DNA of 21,993 bases from a bacterium (GCA_021784555.1 JAJYHY010000119.1:1-21993), one strand, 5' to 3'. Shown: positions 4,405 to 21,993, numbered from the stretch's first letter. Notes: generated by a model not told the origin, from the sequence alone. Program-made: numbers and translations.

Positions 4405-4962
4405 ATGGCATCCGTGCTTGAAACGGCGGGCTCAATCGACTTCGATGACCAGACGGCATTCAACCTGGCGGTGTGGGAGAAGGTGCTGGCCGATCCTTTT
4501 TTGGCCGGCGTACCTTATCGCGTCGAGACGGACCGCTACGGACAAATCGTCATGACACCCCCACCCGCCCCCGAACATGGAGAGGAACAATTTGGAATCG
4601 GCGAGCTCCTGCATCAACTCCTGCCCGGCGGTCATGTGATCACGGAGTGTCCCGTATCTACGCGCGAAGGGGTGAAGGGCGTGGACGTGGTCTGGATGTC
4701 GAAGGCGCGCCGTCAGGCACAAAGGAGGAAGAAATGCTTCACCAAGGCGCCGGAGATCTGCGTGGAGGTCATCTCCCCCGGCAATACACCGCGTGAATTG
4801 CGGGAGAAAAAGGCGCTTTATTTTGAGGCCGGAGCTAAGGAAGTCTGGTTCTGCCACGGTGATGGACGGATGGAGTTTTTCTTAAGGGCGGCTCCGAAGA
4901 AACCGGGGGTCTCCATCCTCTGTCCCCGTTTCCCGGAGCGGATTCAAATCGACCGGGCGTAG
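4405..4962 (+). CDS. Uma2-family (DUF820) putative restriction-endonuclease-like protein
   Basis: 185 aa; motifs ...VDVVW...KAPEICVEVISPGN...REL.EKKALYFEAGAKEVWF match the PD-(D/E)xK-like core of Uma2/DUF820 proteins. Confidence 0.8.
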   Translation: MASVLETAGSIDFDDQTAFNLAVWEKVLADPFLAGVPYRVETDRYGQIVMTPPPAPEHGEEQFGIGELLHQLLPGGHVITECPVSTREGVKGVDVVWMSKARRQAQRRKKCFTKAPEICVEVISPGNTPRELREKKALYFEAGAKEVWFCHGDGRMEFFLRAAPKKPGVSILCPRFPERIQIDRA

Positions 4963-5032
4963 CAGGGCTTGAGAGGAGTGCCTGGCTGCGGTTTCGCTGC
5001 CCCGCCTCTCTCTCAGCCACAATTTTTTGCCA

Positions 5033-5146
5033 CCATTTTTTTGCCGTAGTCCTTTTTGGGTCTGGTTTTGCCAAGTTAGGATTTCGGGTTTGCCAGGTCC
5101 GGGGGTACTGGCGGGTCCCGTGCGCCATTTTTGGCCGTGTCCTTCC
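5033..5146. repeat. Iteron-like array of TTTTGCC(A/G) direct repeats with A/T tracts upstream of the HTH gene
   Basis: ttttgcca 5036, ttttgccg 5050, ttttgcca 5077, gtttgcca 5098, ttttggccg 5138; spacings 14/27/21/40 bp (about multiples of 7). Confidence 0.45.
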
Positions 5147-5184
5147 TTCTTGCAAAGCGAGGCCCGCTCTTCCAAAGTGGCCCC

Positions 5185-5685
5185 ATGCAATCACACGAGA
5201 TCCTCCGGGAAGTCTTTCAGCAATGCAGCCCCAAGCAGGTGGCGGCCGAGATGGGCCTCTCCCTTTCGATGATCTATAAGTGGGCCGAGCCGCCTGACCC
5301 TCAGGCCGGCAGCGGCAGCACCAACCCGCTGGATCGCGTCGAGGCGCTCCTGCAATGCACCAACGACAAACGATTGGTGCAATGGATATGCGAGCGGGCG
5401 GGCGGCTTTTTCATCCTGAACCCGAAGATGAACCACGCCCACCCGGATTATCTCATCCCAGCCACAAACGAGATCGTGCAGGAGTTCGCCGATTTGCTGG
5501 CGGTGATTGCCAGCGCCGCGGCCGACAACCAGATCACGGAAAAAGAGGCCGAGCAAATCCGCCGCCGATGGGAGGAACTCAAATCGGTTACCGAGACTTT
5601 CGTTGCCTGTTCAGAACTGGGCAACTTCCGCGTCCTCAAAGAAAATCCCCCCGGCGTGAGCCGGGGAGCAACCCGCTCGGCATAG
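5185..5685 (+). CDS. Helix-turn-helix DNA-binding protein, phage CII/CP76-like regulator fold (hypothetical)
   Basis: MQSHEILREVFQQCSPKQVAAEMGLSLSMIYKWAEP is a classic HTH; ORF track start is 5131, but ATG at 5185 sits downstream of the repeat array. Confidence 0.55.
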   Translation: MQSHEILREVFQQCSPKQVAAEMGLSLSMIYKWAEPPDPQAGSGSTNPLDRVEALLQCTNDKRLVQWICERAGGFFILNPKMNHAHPDYLIPATNEIVQEFADLLAVIASAAADNQITEKEAEQIRRRWEELKSVTETFVACSELGNFRVLKENPPGVSRGATRSA

Positions 5686-5695
5686 GCCCAGGCGA

Positions 5696-6715
5696 TTAAG
5701 AACCCTGGCCGGCGTTGAGTTGTACCAGCCAAATATTGCGGTACCGCACTGGGTTGCCATGGTCCTGGAGCTGCAGCGGACCCGTGGCGGTGTTCTTCGG
5801 CTTCTTACCAGGTTCGTAGATGGCGGTCGCGCCCAGAATCGGGCTGTTGTCCTGAATCGTGATGCCATTGAACTTCACGGTGACGCGGGCCTTCTCCCGG
5901 ACCGAGCCGTCCGAGTTCATCCGCGGGGCGTGGAAGGTGATGTCGTAAGTCTGCCAATGCTCGGGAGGCAGGCTGGCGTTGACCAGCGGGCGCCTCTGGT
6001 TGTAGATGGCGCCGCAGTCGCCCATGGATGGCACCAAACCAAAGGAATCGAGCACCTGGATCTCATACATGCCGTTTAGAAACACACCGCTGTTAGCCCG
6101 TTCCTGGCCGAAACGATCCTCCCTCAGCGGCAACCAGAACTCCAGGTGCAACCGGATGTCGCCGAACCTTTGCTTGGTCGTGATCGAACCTTTACCGGGG
6201 ACACATTGCAGGCTGCCGTCGGGCAGGGGCTTCCACGGCCCGCCATTCCAGGCCGAGGTGTCGGGCGGCGTGCCGGGTGTAAAGGGCAGCAGCACCACGG
6301 CGCCGTCTGGCGGCGGGGCGCCTTCGGTGGGCGAAGTGCGCGTCGTTTTCCTCAACGTCAGGCTGACGCCGTAGTAGCCGGGGTCCGCCTGCAACCGGTC
6401 GCCGGAGATCGCGCCATGCCACATATTGGCGTTGGCCCGTCCGAACAGATTAACCCGCCTCCCTTGCCGCACGCCATAGATCACGAATTGCGCGGTTGGC
6501 TGGCCGGACACGAGCGGCTCAGCCTGGATTACCACGCGGTAATAGCCTGGCCCCTCCGGGATAACGTCGGCCGTAGCCTTGGTCGTATGCGACCTGTCGG
6601 CCTGGTAGGTGCCCTGATATTCGCCCATGAAAGGCTCCTGGGCGCGGACCGGTTCAAGCAGTGCCGTCAAACCGGCGGCAATGAATACGCACTTCAGCAG
6701 ATGTGACGTCATCAT
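5696..6715 (-). CDS. DUF1080 (PF06439, 3-keto-disaccharide hydrolase) domain protein with signal peptide
   Basis: N-terminal signal peptide; WKPLPDG...GDIRLHLEF...NSGVFLNGMYEIQVLDS...GAIYNQRRP...EHWQTYDITF...LQLQDHGNPVRYRNIWL matches the DUF1080 concanavalin-like fold signature. Confidence 0.85.
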   Translation of the reverse strand: MMTSHLLKCVFIAAGLTALLEPVRAQEPFMGEYQGTYQADRSHTTKATADVIPEGPGYYRVVIQAEPLVSGQPTAQFVIYGVRQGRRVNLFGRANANMWHGAISGDRLQADPGYYGVSLTLRKTTRTSPTEGAPPPDGAVVLLPFTPGTPPDTSAWNGGPWKPLPDGSLQCVPGKGSITTKQRFGDIRLHLEFWLPLREDRFGQERANSGVFLNGMYEIQVLDSFGLVPSMGDCGAIYNQRRPLVNASLPPEHWQTYDITFHAPRMNSDGSVREKARVTVKFNGITIQDNSPILGATAIYEPGKKPKNTATGPLQLQDHGNPVRYRNIWLVQLNAGQGS

Positions 6716-13278: not shown

Positions 13279-13489
13279 GTAGCCAACGGCACGCCCAGCG
13301 GCTATATAGAAGGCGTTCTTTGAAAGGCAAAGCAAACACAGCCGGGCGTCAGGGAACCCCGTGAAAATCGGGGACGGTTACGCCACTGTAACGGGCTACA
13401 AGCTCCCAAGGCCACTGATCTGTCGATCGGGAAGGCGGGAGCGAGGTTGAAGCCCGGAGTCAGGATATCGGTCTGGCCGTGCTCGTCAT
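13279..13489 (+). ncRNA. Cobalamin (adenosylcobalamin/B12) riboswitch
   Basis: Conserved core elements in order on the + strand: AGGGAA (13350), CCCCGTGAAAATCGGGG, ACGGTTACGCCACTGTAACGGG, B12 box GGCCACTG (13410), GGGAAGGC (13429), 3' AGTCAGGATATCGGTCTGGCC; matches the RF00174 consensus architecture. Confidence 0.8.
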
Positions 13490-13520
13490 GGCCCCGCTCT
13501 ACGGGGTCAGCTTCTCCGTT
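13490..13520 (+). terminator. Candidate expression-platform terminator hairpin (GGCCCCG-ctcta-CGGGGTC) followed by a weak U-rich tract
   Basis: 7-bp GC-rich stem immediately after the riboswitch 3' strand; then agcTTCTCCGTT. Confidence 0.3.
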
Positions 13521-13673
13521 AAAGAGAAGGATGAGGCCAGCCCCGGGCGCGGGTGCGCATGGGGACTTGTCGAATGACTGCCATTCGCCGATTTGCCGGC
13601 GCCGGAAGGCTGCTCCTTTCGGCCCGGCGCTGGTCTCTCAATCGTCAACCGCAGCAAGTATTGAAAGATCAGC

Positions 13674-14693
13674 ATGTTCAAAATCCAGTCGTCCACGCTG
13701 GCCCTGGCCGGCGCTGTACTCGTTTCCACGGTTGCCTCGGCCACTATTTATGCCGCGGGCGTTGACCTCGTTACCGAAGATTTCGCGCAACCACCCTCTA
13801 CTCGAGGCTGGCAGGTCTTTGGCGACACAAACCTGTTCCAATGGAACCAGGCGGGGCAGAACCTCGCCGTCACCTGGGATTCCTCCAAGCCCAATAGCTT
13901 CTTCTATCATCCCCTCGGCAGGATGTTGGACCGGAGCAATGATTTTACGCTGACGTTCGACTTGGTTCTCAATGACATCGCGATTGGAACGGACCCCGGC
14001 ATGCCGGGCACCTTCGAAATCGCCTTGGGTCTCATCAATCTCTCAAAGGCCACCAATACGGATTTCTTGCGTGGCACCGGCTTCAACTCCCCCGACCTGG
14101 CCGAATTCGATTACTTTCCTGATTCAGGCTACGGCGCCACCGTCGCCGCGACGCTCATTTCCGACACCAATGAATTCAACAGCGGCGGCTATGGGTTTCC
14201 GCTCGAGTTGACAACGAATGACCTCTTCCACGTACAGATGCATTTCGATGTCGCGACACAAAGCCTGACGACGACCATGACCCGGAATGGACAGCCGTTC
14301 GGCCCAATTCCTGACGCTTTTCTCGGAACCAACTTCAGCGACTTTCACGTGGATTGCCTGGCCATCAGCAGTTACTCCGATGCCGGGCAGGACCCCGCCT
14401 ACGCCGGTTCCATTCTCGCCCACGGCATCCTCGATAACCTGTCGTTGGGCGTGCCACTTCCGGCAGGGACTCTGACTGGAGGGTTCTCCAGCGGCGGGTT
14501 TGAGGTCCGGTTCGATAGCCTTACTAACTGGCTCTATACGCTTGAACGGACGAAGGATTTCTCGAGTTGGGACGATATTCCACCCGCGGTGAACGGGACT
14601 GGGGGCGAGTTGGAGTTGTCGGATACGAACGGGCCGGCTGGCGCCGCGTTCTATCGCGTCAAAGCCGCGCCGGGCGTGCAGCCTGGCTTGTGA
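13674..14693 (+). CDS. Secreted hypothetical protein with a C-terminal beta-sandwich-like domain ending ...FYRV; first gene downstream of the B12 riboswitch
   Basis: N-terminal signal peptide MFKIQSSTLALAGAVLVSTVASATIYA; 339 aa, Thr/Asn/Gly/Asp-rich; C-terminal ~80 aa pattern FEVRFDSLTNWLYTLERTKDFSSWDDI...GGELELSDTN...AAFYRV seen in many PVC surface proteins; no characterised domain recognised. Confidence 0.75.
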   Translation: MFKIQSSTLALAGAVLVSTVASATIYAAGVDLVTEDFAQPPSTRGWQVFGDTNLFQWNQAGQNLAVTWDSSKPNSFFYHPLGRMLDRSNDFTLTFDLVLNDIAIGTDPGMPGTFEIALGLINLSKATNTDFLRGTGFNSPDLAEFDYFPDSGYGATVAATLISDTNEFNSGGYGFPLELTTNDLFHVQMHFDVATQSLTTTMTRNGQPFGPIPDAFLGTNFSDFHVDCLAISSYSDAGQDPAYAGSILAHGILDNLSLGVPLPAGTLTGGFSSGGFEVRFDSLTNWLYTLERTKDFSSWDDIPPAVNGTGGELELSDTNGPAGAAFYRVKAAPGVQPGL

Positions 14694-14787
14694 ACCGTGA
14701 GGCGCCGCCGTGCCACAACTATATATAGCCTGTCCCAAAACTGCAGGAGAGGAGGTAACGAGTCTCTGTTCCGCTCCAAAAGACCCA

Positions 14788-15597
14788 ATGAATCAGAGCA
14801 AATCGCAAATCGCGGATCGTGAATGCGAGCGGCGCCCGTCCAGTCCACACCCGCCCCGCCCCGCGGCATTCACGCTGGTGGAGTTGCTGGTGGTGGTCGC
14901 GATGATCGGCCTTCTAGCGGCGATGCTTCTGCCGGCGCTGGCTCGGAGCAAGGCCTCGGCGCAACGCGTTAAGTGCCTCAGCAACCTGCGCCAACTGGGA
15001 CTGGCATCCCAGATGTATTGGGATGATAACCGCGGAGACTGTTTCCGTTACGGCGGCGCGGCGACGAATGGCGGACAGCTTTACTGGTTCGGATGGATCG
15101 GCCCCGGGCCTGAAGGCCAACGCGCCTTTGACCCCACGGCGGGCGCCCTCTACCCCTATTTGCGGGGACGGGGAGTGGAGGTTTGTCCCGCCTTCCAGTA
15201 CGACGCTCCGGATGTGAAACTGAAGGCGAGCGGGGCGACTTATGGCTACGGCTACAATCTTTATCTCTCGACGGCGCTTTCAAAGCCGGCGTTCAACATT
15301 GGTTGGCTGCGAGATCCCTGCGGCCGGGCGCTGCTGGCGGATGCGGCGCAAGTCAACACGTGGCAAGCGCCCGCTTCGCCGAGCCATCCGATGCTCGAGG
15401 AGTGGTATTATGTCGACAACAGCACCAACCAGCCAAACGTCCATTTCCGCCACCAACAAAAGGCGCAGGCGGTCTTCTGCGACGGCCACGCGGACGCGCG
15501 AGGATTCGTTCCGGGGTCAATCGACAGCCGTTTGCCCTCCGCCTGTGTCGGACGCCTCAGCCCCGAGATCCTGGCAGGCCGTGATGATGGCCGATGA
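14788..15597 (+). CDS. DUF1559 protein: prepilin-type N-terminal cleavage/methylation domain plus C-terminal H-X9-DG motif
   Basis: [47 protein letters not shown] is a type IV pilin-like N-terminus; C-terminal [13 protein letters not shown] fits H-X9-DG; family hugely expanded in Planctomycetes/Verrucomicrobia. ORF track start is 14710; ATG at 14788 (MNQSKSQ) is more likely. Confidence 0.85.
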
Positions 15598-15687
15598 CCG
15601 GCGAGGCGGCGTTCGGACGAGTGTCTGGAGAGAACCGCGGGCAGGATCTGGCTTCCTCCCGGCGGAAGATTCCGATACAGTCAGGTC

Positions 15688-16767
15688 ATGCAGACTAAAG
15701 CTCCGCTGGGCCGCCATTTTGCCAGTGATAATTACGCCGGGATTTGTCCCGAGGCCTTCGCCGCAATGACCCAGGCCAACCGGGGCCACGAGGTCAGCTA
15801 CGGCGAAGACACGTGGACGGCAAAGGCCGCGGACCTGATTCGGGAGGTGTTCGAGACCGAGTGCGAGGTGTTCTTTGTCTTCAACGGCACCTCGGCCAAC
15901 TCCCTCTCGTTGGCCTCCCTCTGTCAGTCCTACCACAGCATTCTCTGCCACGAGATAGCGCACGTGGAAGGTTCCGAATGCGGTGCGCCGGAGTTCTTTG
16001 CGAATGGGACCAAAGTGTTGCTCCTGCCGGGGGCCGATGGGAAGATTGACCACAAATCAATCGAGCGCGCCGTCAACCGGCGGGCGGACATCCACTTTCC
16101 CAAAGCGCGCGCCCTAAGCCTGACACAGGTGACCGAAGTCGGCACCGCCTATTCACTGGATGAATTGGGCGCCCTGGCCAATGCCGCCCGGCATTTCAAC
16201 CTGCGCATCCAGATGGACGGCGCGCGCTTTGCCAACGCGGTCGCTTCCCTGGGTGTGGCCCCCAAGCAGATCACCTGGCAAGCCGGAGTGGACGTGCTCT
16301 GCTTTGGCGGCAGCAAGAACGGGATTGCGCTGGGAGAAGCGGTGGTGTTTTTCAACCGCGAACTGGCCCAGGAGTTTGATTATCGCTGCAAGCAAGGCGG
16401 GCAACTCGCCTCCAAGATGCGTTTCCTCTCGGCCCCGTGGGTCGGAATGCTCCAGGACGGCGCCTGGCTCCGGCACGCCGCCCATTCCAACGCCATGGCC
16501 AAGCGCCTGGAAGCCGCCATCCGCCCTCTGCCGGGCATCCGGATTTCCTACCCGGTGCAGAGCAACGCGGTGTTCGCCAAAATCCCAGACGCGGTTGTGG
16601 GAGAAATGCACCGGCGGGGCTGGCGGTTCTACACGCGGATCGGCGGGTGGGAGGAGTCGCGGCTGATGTGCAGTTGGGACACGACACCGGAGGATGTCGA
16701 TGCCTTTGCCGCGGACCTCAGAGAGCTTTCGGTCCCTGACCAGGGCGTCGGCGCGCAAGCCAAGTAG
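15688..16767 (+). CDS. ltaE: Low-specificity L-threonine aldolase-like PLP-dependent enzyme (beta-eliminating lyase family)
   Basis: FASDNYAG...YGEDTWTAKAADLIREVFETECEVFFVFNGTSANSLSL and overall length (359 aa) match the LtaE/threonine aldolase family; gene symbol by homology only. Confidence 0.8.
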   Translation: MQTKAPLGRHFASDNYAGICPEAFAAMTQANRGHEVSYGEDTWTAKAADLIREVFETECEVFFVFNGTSANSLSLASLCQSYHSILCHEIAHVEGSECGAPEFFANGTKVLLLPGADGKIDHKSIERAVNRRADIHFPKARALSLTQVTEVGTAYSLDELGALANAARHFNLRIQMDGARFANAVASLGVAPKQITWQAGVDVLCFGGSKNGIALGEAVVFFNRELAQEFDYRCKQGGQLASKMRFLSAPWVGMLQDGAWLRHAAHSNAMAKRLEAAIRPLPGIRISYPVQSNAVFAKIPDAVVGEMHRRGWRFYTRIGGWEESRLMCSWDTTPEDVDAFAADLRELSVPDQGVGAQAK

Positions 16768-16942: not shown

Positions 16943-18490
16943 TCAGGGAGAACGAGCGGTTGTGGACTTAATCCTGGTGAGTTGTTGAGTTTCCGCGTCC
17001 ACCATGCGGGCCGGCAACTCGGGGCGGCACGTGAGCGTGCGTCGCTGGAACGGGCTGGCGAGCAATTTGAACATGTCACTCCTCTTCATGTGCCTGCCAA
17101 AGGAGCGCAAGAGCTGGAGCGTCTTGAGCGGACGTTTTAACAGGCGCGCGGCGAATAGCAGAGCGTAGCCCTGCATGCGCAGGCGATTCACCTCGGCGCC
17201 CGACAAGGCGGTGGGATCAATGTCGGTGCATTTGAACCACTTGTACCAATCCCGTTCGTCGTCGATGATCTCCCGTCGAACGTATTCATCCCAAAGTGGG
17301 GTGCCGCGGTAAGCACACAGGCGATTAAAACCAAAGGTGTCCAAATGCGACCGTGCGGCGAAACGGAAGCTTTCCAGGATGTCATCGGCAGTTTCATCAG
17401 GACATCCAATGACAAAGAAGCCGTGAACGCGGGCAATGCCTTGCCGTTTAGCCTCGCTGACCGCGCGTTGGACCTGGGCGAGGGTCTGCCTCTTTTTGAG
17501 GCGGGTCAGGATTTTCTGCGTGCCGGCTTCCACCCCAAATGCGAGCGCATCGCAGTTGGCCTGGCGCATGAGACTCAGTTGGTCAACCGCAGTGGAATCC
17601 ACCCGCCCCTCGCAGCTCCAGTGAAACCGCAGTTTGCGTTCAATCATGCCGCGGCATATCGCGGTAATTCGCTCCCGGTTAATGAGAAAATGGTCGTCGG
17701 TGAGACAGATTGAACGATAGCCCAGGTCGTTCAACTGCTGCAGTTCGCCCAAGACGTGCTGCGCTGACCGGCTGCGCCACCGGCCTTCGGAAAGGGAAGG
17801 AATGTCGCAATACACGCAGGAGTAGGGACAACCTCTGGAGGTCTGAACCGTGCAGAACTGGTCTAGCGAAAGAACGGCCGGGACGTCCAGCGGCAAGGAC
17901 TCGATGTAATCAACCGGCAGACTGGAACGGTCCGGATAGGGAAAACGGTCCAGGTCCCTGAGCAGCGGACGCGGTGCGTTTTGAACTATCTCGTCTCCGT
18001 TTCGCCAGACCAAACCGGCTACCGCCCCGGGATCGTCGAGGTTGGCCAGGTAGTCCGGCAGCAACTCTTCACCTTCACCCACGCCGACACAATCGATTTG
18101 CGGGCAATCCTGGAGGATCCGGTCCGCGTTCACGGTGGCAAACGGCCCGCCAACGATGACCGGCGTTTTAGGCGCAACCTGCTTCAGGCTCGCCGCCATC
18201 TGCTTGGCCCCCGTGTAGGTGGTCGTGGACAGGAATGAAAGGCCGATGACATCGGGGCGCTCCCTTTGCGTCGCTTGAGCCAGGTGCTCCGATTTCATCC
18301 GCGGGTGGCAGGTATCGAAGAGGCGCACCTGGTGTCCATGCTGGCGAAGGACCGGAGCGAGCGTTTGAATCCCGAGCGGAGGGAATGCCGCGATCTTGGC
18401 GCGACCCCGTTCGCTGGGCAAACGGCCGCGCACCCTGGGAAGCACGCGGCTGAAATTGTCGTCAGCAACGTGAATCAGGAATACATTCAT
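16943..18490 (-). CDS. B12-binding-domain-containing radical SAM protein (class B radical SAM enzyme)
   Basis: N-terminal cobalamin-binding Rossmann-like region (IGLSFLSTTTYTGAKQMA...PVIVGGPFATV); radical SAM CxxxCxxC motif SRGCPYSCVYCDIP; good SD GAAAGG 8 nt before ATG at 18490 (track start 18544 is further upstream in frame). Confidence 0.9.
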   Translation of the reverse strand: MNVFLIHVADDNFSRVLPRVRGRLPSERGRAKIAAFPPLGIQTLAPVLRQHGHQVRLFDTCHPRMKSEHLAQATQRERPDVIGLSFLSTTTYTGAKQMAASLKQVAPKTPVIVGGPFATVNADRILQDCPQIDCVGVGEGEELLPDYLANLDDPGAVAGLVWRNGDEIVQNAPRPLLRDLDRFPYPDRSSLPVDYIESLPLDVPAVLSLDQFCTVQTSRGCPYSCVYCDIPSLSEGRWRSRSAQHVLGELQQLNDLGYRSICLTDDHFLINRERITAICRGMIERKLRFHWSCEGRVDSTAVDQLSLMRQANCDALAFGVEAGTQKILTRLKKRQTLAQVQRAVSEAKRQGIARVHGFFVIGCPDETADDILESFRFAARSHLDTFGFNRLCAYRGTPLWDEYVRREIIDDERDWYKWFKCTDIDPTALSGAEVNRLRMQGYALLFAARLLKRPLKTLQLLRSFGRHMKRSDMFKLLASPFQRRTLTCRPELPARMVDAETQQLTRIKSTTARSP

Positions 18491-18862
18491 AACTGCCTTT
18501 CGTGCCACCGGTCGAATCGAAACCAGCCACCCTGAGGTGAGCATTTCATATCACCATTCATCGTAGTTCAAGGACAAACCGACATTTCGGGGTCTTCCTT
18601 GTTTGCCTGGTCTCTGTGGGTGTCCTGGTTACACTTTGATCGCCGCTGGGATTGCGTAGGCATCCTACATGCGAGGTCAGTTGGTTCGTTCATGCAGGGA
18701 CGCGCTCGTTTTGAGCTTTAGACTGCGACACACCGCGGCCCGTGTCAACGCCTGATTCAACGACGAGGGCGGGCCGGGCGGAAGGCACGGCGCAGGCGCG
18801 ATGTGGCCGGTCCCCCACAGCCCGCCGAAAAGGGGGCAAGCCTCTGCTTGGCCCGAGCACCC

Positions 18863-19810
18863 TCATAAGCCGACGAACTTCATTCCGAAGTGGACCCAAA
18901 GCGGGATGGTGATCAGCCCGGCGATGGAGGTGCTGAGCACAACCCGCAACGCGGTGGCGGGGTCGCCGCCATAATGGCGCGACAACACGATGGGAAAGAC
19001 GGCGGAGGGCATGGCCGCCTCGATGACCATCACCCGCTTCAGTTCGATGGAAGCCGGCAGGTGTTTTGCCAGGAGCAGGAAGAGCATCGGCAGGACGCCT
19101 AACCGAAGCACCAGGGCCGTCGCGATGACCCGTCCGCCGGACTTGGCGTGGAACTCGTGCAGATGGTCGGCGATGACCGCTCCAATGAGAAGGAGCGCCA
19201 TGGGGATGGCGCTCTGGCCGAACCAGTGAAGGATGGTGAGGATAACTCTTGGCAGTTGGGAACTAAGGCCGAGGGCATTGAGGATGAGCGCCAGAGAAAT
19301 GGCCATCAGCGGCGCGTTGATGAGCTTGCGCCAGTCGCGTCCGGGTGTGCCGCCGCTCAAGAGCGCCACTCCGAGGGTCCACAGCCCGATTTCGACCCCG
19401 ACGTTGTGAACGAAAAGCACTCCAACCGTCCCCCTGCCGAACAGCAGCAGGGTCAGAGGCAAGGGGACGTAGCCGTAATTGTAGATGCCCACGGTCACCG
19501 CGAATGTGCCGCGGGCGCGCGCGCCTTTCAGCCCGGCCAGCCGGCGCGCGGCCAGCGCCAGGAGCAGGCCGCAGGCGACCGTCGCGAAGCCAACCAGCGG
19601 CGCGAGCACCAGGTTGCTCCACCGGCTCAAGGCCGGGTTGCCCAACTCCGAGTCCAGAATGAGCGAGGGGTAAAGGACGTTGATGTTCAGGCGCAAGAGG
19701 CTCTGGTCAGCCTCTTCTGTCAGCCAATTCACCTTCCGCAACACCAGCCCCGCGGCCACGGTGCCGAAAACGGGGAGGGCGGCCCCAAGGACTGTCTGGA
19801 ACTCATTCAT
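18863..19810 (-). CDS. AEC-family (auxin efflux carrier / malate-malonate permease-like) membrane transporter
   Basis: 315 aa, ~10 predicted TM helices; N- and C-terminal repeat halves with motifs typical of the PF03547 membrane transport family. Confidence 0.85.
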   Translation of the reverse strand: MNEFQTVLGAALPVFGTVAAGLVLRKVNWLTEEADQSLLRLNINVLYPSLILDSELGNPALSRWSNLVLAPLVGFATVACGLLLALAARRLAGLKGARARGTFAVTVGIYNYGYVPLPLTLLLFGRGTVGVLFVHNVGVEIGLWTLGVALLSGGTPGRDWRKLINAPLMAISLALILNALGLSSQLPRVILTILHWFGQSAIPMALLLIGAVIADHLHEFHAKSGGRVIATALVLRLGVLPMLFLLLAKHLPASIELKRVMVIEAAMPSAVFPIVLSRHYGGDPATALRVVLSTSIAGLITIPLWVHFGMKFVGL

Positions 19811-20130
19811 GCGGGCGGCTCAGGCCGCTGGTTTCACCGGAGAGCAAATGCACAGGGCCTTGGCGGAGAAAGGGTGAACGCCACCGCGCTTAGCGCATGG
19901 GCAACTGCCATTGCAGGAATTGGCCTTGATCAATCTGACCGTTAGCTCCTGAACCGAGCGGTCGGTTTCCAACGGATTTTCGGCCAGCTTTTTCGTGTCC
20001 ATTGAATTGACTTTAATGCAACCAGCCCACTGGCTCAACGGCAAAAACGGGCCTTCCTCACCAGGCGAGAATTTGGGATCAAACGAATCACTTGCCCGGA
20101 CGGCTTCGGCACAGTACCCTCTTGGTTGAC

Positions 20131-21993
20131 GTGAAGAATCGAATTCGTGCGGTCCATAACACCCCAAAACACACAAAGGGGCTTTTTGCCCTCGGAGGCG
20201 CGGCGGTCGTCGCCCTGCTGCTATTAGCCCTGTTTATCCATTATTACGGCAACTGGCTCTGGTTCCAAAACCTGGGGTTCGCGCGGGTCTTCACCACGGT
20301 CTTATGGACGAAGGTCGTGGTGTTTACGCTGTTCTTTTTAGGCTTTGCGGTGTTTGCGGGAGGCAATGTCTTTGCCGCCAGGCGAGGCGGAGGGCCTACC
20401 CGGGTTCCCAGGGCGAGGAGTGCCGACTCGCCGCTCACCATATTGGATGTTGTGTTTCATGAGGACTATGCCTCTTATGCATGGGCCATTATCATTGTGG
20501 TCGTATCGGCTCTGATGGGGCTCAACGCGTCCAGTTCCTGGATGGCTTTTCTGAAGTTCACACACGCGTCGCCATTCGGCGTGGCGGACCCGATCTTTTC
20601 GAAGGACGCCGGGTTTTACGTTTTCCGGTTGCCATTTTACAGCTTTTTGCAGCAATGGTGTTCGCTGGCGGTGGTCCTGACCATTGGCGCGGTGACCCTG
20701 TCCTATTTTCTGGATCAGGCCGTTGGCATCCTGTCGAACCGGTTGTACATCAATTCGAGGGTGAAGGTGCATCTGGCGACGTTGGCTGGACTTTTCGCCT
20801 TGGCGGTGGCGTGGTCCTACCGGCTGAACATGTACAACCTGATGTATTCCAACAGCGGTGTGGCTTACGGCGCCAGTTACTCGGATGTCCACGCCAAGCT
20901 GCCGGCGTATTGGGTTCTGCTGGTCCTGAGCGTTTTGGTAGCCGTTCTGCTGTTGGCCGCGCCTTGGGTGAAGCGATGGAGATGGGTGGTCTATGCGGTG
21001 GGGCTGTACTTTGTGGTGCTCATCGGCCTGTCCTGGATTTATCCGGCCATCGTCGAACAATACGTGGTCAAACCGAATGAACTGGCAAACGAGATGCCGT
21101 ACATACGGAACAACATCAAGTTCACCCGGCTCGGTTATGGCCTCAATAAGGCGCGGGAGGAACCGTTCCGGGTCCGAGGTGGAATGTCATACAATGACAT
21201 CCTCACCAACCAATCCACGATTCACAGCATACGGTTGTGGGACCGCCGTCCGCTAATCCAGACCTATAAGCAACTGCAGGAGATCCGGCTCTACTACGAC
21301 TTCAAGAGTGTCGACGTGGATCGCTATCATTTTGGGAACAACTACATGGAAGTGGCGCTGGCCGGAAGGGAATTGCCCCCAGGCCAGTTGCCGGCGCGCG
21401 CGAGGACGTGGGTCAATACGCACCTGGTTTATACGCACGGATACGGGGTGGTCATGAGCCCGGTCAACGAGGTCACCGAGGACGGCATGCCCAACTTCAT
21501 CGTCCAGAACATACCGCCGCAATCGAGCACTTCCCTGACCATCACGCGTCCGGAGATCTATTACGGAGAGGAGACTGGTGGATTTACCATCGTGCATACA
21601 AGAACCAAGGAATTCGATTACCCCAAGGGCGAGCGCAACGTCTATGCCTCGTATCACGGGAACGGCGGCGTGGAGCTCACCAGCTACTTCCGAAGGCTGG
21701 TTTATAGCCTGCAAATGGGTGACCCGAATATCCTCCTGTCCCGCTATATCACCGGCCAGAGCCGGCTCATGTTCCATCGGATCATTACCGACCGCGACGC
21801 GACCATCGCGCCGTTTCTCTCGTATGACTCGGATCCGTATCTGGTGGTGGGCCAGGACGGCCATCTTTATTGGATTCACGACGCCTACACCACCAGCGGC
21901 ATGTTTCCCTATTCCCAACCGCTGGATCAGAGCCTGGGCCAGAGCGGTATCAATTACATCCGGAACTCGATCAAGGTTGTGATTGACGCCTAC
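20131..21993 (+). CDS. UPF0182-family large membrane protein, 5' partial (runs off the window end; not in the supplied ORF track because it has no stop)
   Basis: Frame 1 is open from GTG 20131 to the window end (~620 codons, hand-translated, no stops); N-terminal multi-TM region; conserved block [26 protein letters not shown] resembles the UPF0182 signature (PNE..E.PYI.RNI.ATR.AYGL). Confidence 0.75.

Follow-up and report, generated by a model that had tools for sequence, protein, structure and literature searches.

We analysed a stretch of bacterial DNA of 21,993 nucleotides (nt) (GCA_021784555.1, JAJYHY010000119.1:1-21993; hereafter the window, by which the whole stretch is meant), in which a cobalamin riboswitch on the plus strand precedes the genes for a secreted protein, L, and a prepilin-type protein, P, a pair that recurs behind such riboswitches in related genomes. 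The riboswitch aptamer (RF00174) occupies positions 13327-13490 on the plus strand and was found with the Rfam covariance model in cmscan, scoring 72.9 bits against a gathering cutoff of 31.5 (E = 1.6e-16). The match extends over model positions 1-189, i.e., the full length, and RF00174 was the sole Rfam family detected in the window. This confirms the canonical B12 riboswitch that an initial annotation had read on this strand from the motifs AGGGAA, GTGAAAATC, GCCACTG and GGGAAGGC, all of which are present in the sequence. Of the span given there (13279-13489), the 3' end was correct, while the 5' end had been placed about 48 nt too far upstream.

Three genes follow on the same strand, as the initial annotation had described. 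L (13674-14693, plus strand) starts 183 nt after the aptamer and encodes 339 amino acids (aa) with a signal peptide and no match in Pfam or NCBIfam, in agreement with the earlier view of a secreted protein without a recognizable domain. P (14788-15597, plus strand) encodes 269 aa according to independent gene calls, with an alternative GTG start at position 14710, and is followed by a threonine-aldolase-like, pyridoxal-phosphate-dependent enzyme (15688-16767, plus strand; PF01212 Beta_elim_lyase, 204 bits). The gap between L and P measures 94 nt, or 16 nt if the GTG is used, and that between P and the aldolase-like gene 90 nt. These gene calls, available from another assembly of this DNA, agree on all genes and put the start of P at 14788, yet the choice between GTG 14710 and ATG 14788 is uncertain. 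A strong Shine-Dalgarno-like sequence, GGAGAGGAGG (14744-14753), lies 35 nt 5' of the ATG of P and has no normally spaced start codon. Consistent with the initial annotation, no homologs of BtuBFCD, MetE or NrdDG were found among the other major open reading frames (ORFs) scanned in the window.

To place this arrangement in a comparative context, one genome per species was scanned for relatives. Homologs of L were present in at least 283 species-level genomes, from which the best 80 loci were fetched. Rfam detected RF00174 on the same strand upstream of L in 11 out of 11 loci tested, and in 75 of the 80 loci our own covariance model (R1), built from the Rfam hits of those 11 loci, revealed a riboswitch 5' of the L homolog. 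The five loci missed by R1 are cut contigs: in three of them the sequence starts inside L or fewer than 115 nt ahead of it, and in two it starts inside the gene for a further protein, X, that is described below. Because all five misses are contig truncations, the linkage between riboswitch and L holds in 75 of 75 testable loci. A P ortholog, 46-81% identical to P of the window over near-full length, comes right after L in about 68 of the 80 loci. Homologs of both proteins thus recur behind B12 riboswitches, a point on which the initial annotation had made its reading depend.

The remaining neighbors of the window behave differently. The aldolase-like gene follows P only in locus L001, the closest relative (L proteins 83% identical), and since it is present in a single locus out of 80, it lies outside the conserved unit; its inclusion in the riboswitch unit by the initial annotation could not be upheld. 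In the window itself, no terminator was predicted between P and this gene, which may be co-transcribed with P. The gene did not reach the NCBIfam LtaE equivalog cutoff (50.9 vs 312). A convergent gene for a B12-binding radical S-adenosylmethionine (SAM) enzyme (16943-18544, minus strand) ends 175 nt past the aldolase-like gene, close to the distance of about 180 bp noted previously. Neither this gene nor the deacetylase and Mem_trans neighbors of the window recurred in any of the 80 loci. We therefore rejected a functional link to the radical SAM gene, whose proximity had been pointed out, and regard its position as coincidence. Elsewhere, P is followed by unrelated or convergent genes (glmM-ybbR-cdaA-folP; pullulanase; once PilM). 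The PilM-type gene (PF11104) lies 212 nt past P on the same strand in locus L047 (8023-10077), a single locus that may reflect chance.

Judged by gene order across these loci, the conserved unit is L-P, or three genes including X. Most relatives appear to have L and P even closer together than the window does. In 48 of 70 loci, a candidate in-frame start codon of P overlaps the stop codon of L by 4 nt (NTGA), and the overlap is also present in the independent gene calls for locus L082. This suggests that L and P are translationally coupled, stoichiometric partners in most relatives. The window instead has the gap of 16 or 94 nt.

The leader that separates the aptamer from L is conserved as well. 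In the window, the expression platform (13491-13673, plus strand) contains the hairpin H1 (CUUCUC-CGUUAAA-GAGAAG, 13511-13529), directly 3' of it the element GAUGAGGCCAG (13530-13540), which is invariant among platform copies, a covarying hairpin H3 (13541-13564), and more hairpins up to the start codon. Among the relatives, a highly conserved platform of about 110 nt is found 3' of the aptamers, which also carries a GAAUG/CAUUC hairpin. H1, in the form CUUCUC-CG(U)CAAA-GAGAAG, was invariant in 76 of 76 platform copies, with a loop, CG(U)CAA, that complements the aptamer loop L5 (UUGCG), as expected for the canonical L5-L13 kissing-loop arrangement. In the window and L001, a G:C pair of the kissing loop is changed to A:U on both sides. 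As this double change amounts to one independent compensatory event in evolution, the covariation between L5 and L13 is suggestive only. In H3, 10 pairs showed compensatory changes.

At least 51 of the 76 loci have a terminator-like stem with a U-tract at the end of the platform; in the window and L001, the U-tract has been lost. RNAalifold paired GAUGAGGC with the 5' arm of this stem, so that the predicted pairing could represent a candidate antiterminator. The bases involved are invariant, so covariation is uninformative in this case. By analogy with the norm of the riboswitch family, we infer that control runs in the usual direction, with expression presumably shut down by bound B12.

The L family is large, well conserved and unannotated. 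At 50-60% identity, it comprises at least 1,910 clusters, whose sources are all of the Verrucomicrobiota type (such as Pedosphaera, Limisphaerales and "subdivision 3"). For approximately residues 31-262 of L, structure prediction yielded a jelly roll resembling concanavalin A (ConA) and legume lectins, with the fold of the ConA-like lectin/glucanase superfamily. This is followed by a small predicted beta-sandwich at the C-terminus (approximately residues 268-333), ending in FYRV. The structural matches include legume lectins, the lectin domain of Staphylococcus Aap and other carbohydrate-binding jelly rolls, with about 9-14% identity. At the sequence level, no match of L to the lectin families of Pfam or NCBIfam was obtained, apart from Laminin_G_3 at E = 0.85 in 1 of 25 members. 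A relationship of L to BtuJ or BtuH found no support in three comparisons. Twenty-five members gave no Pfam match to DUF4465, the family of BtuJ, even at E <= 1; a profile of L searched against the Protein Data Bank (PDB) gave no match to solved B12 binders; and an hhalign comparison of L with X aligned the signal peptides only.

L carries a Sec signal peptide and has neither a lipobox nor a PEP-CTERM signal. In proteins in which X is fused to L, the PEP-CTERM anchor of X is gone and the C-terminus is the same as that of L. This suggests that L provides its own means of attachment, with the apparently coupled pilin P as the obvious candidate. In locus L078 (4680-7581), a 420-aa PEP-CTERM protein is followed by a tandem L-L fusion, with two lectin-like units in an ORF of 545 aa, and P lies about 1.2 kb downstream. 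Verrucomicrobial X, L or P genes were also found in metagenome-assembled genomes labelled Haliangiales, Bifidobacterium, Sulfopaludibacter or Binatia (L017, L020, L043, L063, L076); most likely these are binning or labelling errors and not horizontal transfer.

P has the N-terminus of a prepilin, resembling those of GspG and PilA. It matched PF07963 (N_methyl; 24.2 vs a cutoff of 21.2) and TIGR02532 (19.8 vs 16.3), and its class III signal peptide, with Glu5, reads ...PAA/FTLVELLVV. Matches to DUF1559 (PF07596; 19.9 vs a cutoff of 23.3, covering residues 83-106 only) and to the H-X9-DG family TIGR04294 (17.1 vs 19) stayed below their cutoffs. The H-X9-DG motif itself is readable in the sequence, and many orthologs of P have precomputed matches to PF07596. 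The orthologous group in the protein database is tight, with 65-73% identity.

The third protein of the module, X, is found in 34 of the 80 loci and distinguishes three architectures. In the first, represented by the window, the riboswitch is followed by L and P. In the second, X lies between riboswitch and L as a separate secreted protein, about 265 aa in length and equipped with a PEP-CTERM signal (approximately 25 loci; e.g., L006 5173-5982, L026 529-1335, L036 5056-5844). In the third, the riboswitch precedes an X-L fusion of about 550 aa and P; such fusions occur in at least eight loci (L017, L034, L046, L050, L062, L075, L079, L080). Stand-alone and fused X domains share 45-78% identity. 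Searches with tblastn found no match to X in the window or L001. In locus L082, an X-L-P module whose X bears PEP-CTERM lies at a distance of about 7 kb from the genes for exosortase EpsH and EpsI (18549-20220).

In Pfam, X matches PEP-CTERM only. When a profile of X was compared with all PDB sequences, the top two matches were 8blw_B (E = 4.6e-5) and 7biz_A (E = 0.016), both inside B12-binding domains. The source papers identify chain B of 8BLW as Bacteroides thetaiotaomicron BtuG1, in which about 250 residues added at the C-terminus form a BtuH-like B12-binding domain, and 7BIZ as BtuH2 crystallised with cyanocobalamin (PMC10404256, PMC8941943). X is a remote homolog of BtuH2 and the H-domain of BtuG1 in sequence and fold. 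A BtuH-type domain in Verrucomicrobiota was unreported in the literature searched, where BtuH homologs are described only from Bacteroidetes and three Firmicutes. The X family contains at least 907 clusters, within a wider superfamily of 1,763 representatives (929 at E <= 1e-10). Its distant members are mostly PEP-CTERM proteins, two of them with an adjacent beta-propeller, and hold nothing decisive. In P0447 and P0471, X-like domains adjoin or are called together with PQQ/BamB-like beta-propellers, and in locus L037 (3980-5317) a propeller gene follows P. The combination of X with a propeller recalls the layout of BtuG1 (propeller plus H-domain), without any B12-specific feature.

One locus may wire L in a different way. 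In L021 (1313-2796), a short contig, the riboswitch is followed on the same strand by L, a Cys_rich_CWC/DUF5522 gene and a BtuF-like Peripla_BP_2 gene, with no P. L could instead be linked here to an ATP-binding cassette (ABC) importer of the conventional type. L and P can be connected to corrinoid handling because of four lines of comparative evidence: the strict riboswitch linkage (75/75), the L-P pairing, the position of X beside or fused to L (34/80), and the BtuF-like gene of L021. The initial annotation had proposed that the secreted protein, the DUF1559-type protein, or both, take part in corrinoid capture or handling at the cell surface. While the three-gene unit envisaged there did not stand, the core of this proposal, a putative role of L and P in corrinoid capture, is strongly supported by the comparison.

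Taken together, we consider it probable, at roughly 60%, that the window holds the smallest version of a corrinoid-scavenging module that acts outside the cytoplasm, is repressed by B12 and is conserved in subdivision-3 Verrucomicrobiota (Pedosphaera/Limisphaerales). Within such a module, we infer corrinoid binding by X, L or P, an L-P complex, the direction of regulation, and a route across the outer membrane. At low intracellular cobalamin, the leader would be permissive, and L and P would be produced, translationally coupled in most relatives. P would be cut by the prepilin peptidase, yielding a carrier that is anchored in the envelope or incorporated in a (pseudo)pilus. L, without a membrane anchor of its own, would be a lectin-fold effector riding on P and would help to capture corrinoids or pass them to an unlinked transporter. 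X, present in about 40% of relatives, would act as an accessory BtuH-type binder, anchored by PEP-CTERM or fused to the N-terminus of L. With ample cobalamin, the ligand and the L5-L13 kissing loop would stabilise the off state, presumably involving the terminator-like stem and U-tract in most relatives. A more specific version appears doubtful to us: that P forms or caps a type-IV-filament-like (pseudo)pilus showing L (and X), which would serve as a retractable or piston-like "fishing rod" that takes up corrinoids outside the cell and moves them across the outer membrane without the TonB-dependent BtuB.

Several observations speak against a corrinoid-scavenging module. Neither in sequence nor in profile searches did L and P show any resemblance to a known corrinoid-binding protein, and the best structural matches of L, whose fold is that of a generic lectin/glucanase jelly roll, are carbohydrate binders. 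X, the one component related to known B12 binders, is absent from the window and from about 58% of the loci and is thus accessory. Even in X, the ligand contacts of BtuH2 are only partly recognizable: the counterpart of Asn399 in X, an N within the motif FGNAGF, is mostly conserved (H or S in a few members), but that of Gln333 is not, and His476, Tyr510, Trp511 and Trp577 fall outside the segments of X aligned by the hidden Markov models. Within +/-6 kb, the loci share no conserved transporter of the outer or inner membrane; clustering of all ORFs from the 80 loci recovered only opposite-strand housekeeping synteny (glmM, ybbR, cdaA, folP) and a divergent ABC exporter without relation to the module. 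L lacks an adjacent P in about seven loci. Finally, the leader of the window lacks the U-tract typical of the relatives, and no intrinsic terminator was detected there.

Considering the predicted fold of L, the module might respond to B12 starvation through adhesion. L would then be a true glycan lectin on a P pilus, binding surfaces or B12-producing partners such as algae, cyanobacteria or other bacteria, and corrinoids would be bound only by X or by unlinked proteins. The legume lectins, the Staphylococcus Aap lectin domain and the other sugar-binding jelly rolls among the structural neighbors of L agree with this, as does its dissimilarity to every known B12 binder, and the modular pilins that bear a ConA-like lectin module act as adhesins (PMC8179133). 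The fold itself is no argument for sugars, since the B12 binders BtuH and BtuJ are jelly-roll or galactose-binding-like too, and the fusion of L to a BtuH-type domain in at least eight species and the BtuF-like neighbor in L021 fit a corrinoid hand-off chain better. We consider adhesion improbable.

An explanation of similarly low probability concerns P, which may not be a carrier. It could be a cargo-specific pseudopilin that adapts type II secretion to L (and X), or a periplasmic corrinoid binder anchored in the inner membrane that replaces BtuF, with L acting in the periplasm. The GspG-like N-terminus of P and the Pfam name of DUF1559, SBP_bac_10, are in line with such roles. L has a Sec signal peptide only and needs an outer-membrane route, and the apparent translational coupling of L and P fits any stoichiometric partnership. 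Against this stands that the DUF1559 match of P is confined to about 24 residues in its N-terminal part and misses the cutoff. The BtuF-like protein that accompanies L without P in L021 is compatible with P replacing BtuF, although this is one case.

Enzymes that bypass the need for B12 are classic targets of riboswitches, and the aldolase-like enzyme lies on the same strand 90 nt past P without a predicted terminator in between, but the idea that it is the actual target, supplying folate-independent glycine when B12-dependent methionine synthase stalls, with L and P as passengers, is largely refuted by the comparative data and has almost no chance of being correct, as the gene follows the pair in 1 of 80 loci, the closest relative, vs 75 of 75 for riboswitch and L, and the gene after P is convergent or unrelated in most loci.

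To further illuminate how the proposed corrinoid-scavenging module relates to known systems, we compared it with described routes of corrinoid capture. BtuG, BtuH and BtuJ are riboswitch-controlled surface B12 binders, of which BtuG and BtuJ capture corrinoids with high affinity and BtuH is an accessory, surface-exposed protein, and BtuJ includes jelly-roll binders from the Planctomycetes-Verrucomicrobia-Chlamydiae (PVC) group; the BtuJ/DUF4465 proteins are augmented beta-jellyrolls with signal peptides (PMC13398666). The closest counterpart is the BtuH domain of B. thetaiotaomicron (BtuH2 and the H-domain of BtuG1), with which X shares the fold of the B12-binding domain and detectable sequence homology. 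Like X, BtuH is secreted or surface-targeted, encoded right behind a cobalamin riboswitch, either alone or fused, and present in some lineages only (PMC8941943, PMC10404256). In contrast to BtuH, which is attached by a lipid and a PKD stalk, X relies for its anchoring on PEP-CTERM or on being fused to L; it is unlinked to btuB, btuG and btuFCD, occurs in Verrucomicrobiota, and is absent from the window. By analogy, the module resembles BtuG and BtuJ in a presumed extracellular corrinoid capture under a B12 riboswitch, and L, like BtuJ, would be a secreted jelly roll. However, BtuG is a beta-propeller that caps BtuB, whereas no BtuB is linked to the module, and L gives no match to DUF4465, unlike BtuJ. 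The classical BtuBFCD system has in common with the module the cobalamin riboswitch input and the presumed purpose, and locus L021 carries a BtuF-like gene after L, but no TonB-dependent receptor, ABC permease or ATPase was found in the window or was conserved in the 80 neighborhoods.

For the pair L-P itself, the nearest parallel is found in modular pilins and tip adhesins. Streptococcus sanguinis PilC is a pilin carrier with a ConA-like lectin/glucanase module (PMC8179133), and this protein as well as PilY1 with its minor pilins resemble L-P in combining a pilin carrier with a ConA-like effector. In L-P, these are separate polypeptides that appear to be coupled in most loci, the pilin belongs to the PVC-specific H-X9-DG/DUF1559 type, a vitamin riboswitch controls the genes, and any filament is putative.

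Further upstream in the window, at 4405-5685 and 5696-6715, we noted a putative endonuclease of the Uma2 family, a phage CII-like regulator (PF06892) and a secreted DUF1080 protein. The latter resembles 3-keto-disaccharide hydrolases and represents a second ConA-like fold in the window, and the stretch is apparently unrelated to the riboswitch unit.

In the literature searched, we found no prior description of the module of riboswitch, L and P, nor of a prepilin with a cobalamin riboswitch in Verrucomicrobiota. Corrinoids are keystone nutrients that are exchanged in microbial communities, and their extracellular capture is understood mainly in gut Bacteroides (BtuG, BtuH, BtuJ). The present comparison extends BtuH-type domains to abundant soil and freshwater Verrucomicrobiota and adds two new protein families with strict, phylum-wide linkage to B12 riboswitches, the lectin-fold L (at least 1,910 clusters) and a dedicated pseudopilin, P. 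As L, P and X are small and soluble, corrinoid binding would be simple to test. The association of P with the riboswitch also offers a first concrete functional handle on the large, uncharacterised H-X9-DG/DUF1559 prepilin family of PVC bacteria. If the fishing-rod version of the module were true, P would be the first H-X9-DG/DUF1559 pseudopilin with an assignable role, and the DUF1559 paralogs, of which PVC genomes contain hundreds, would be carriers in nutrient capture that are each specific for a substrate and can be exchanged for one another.

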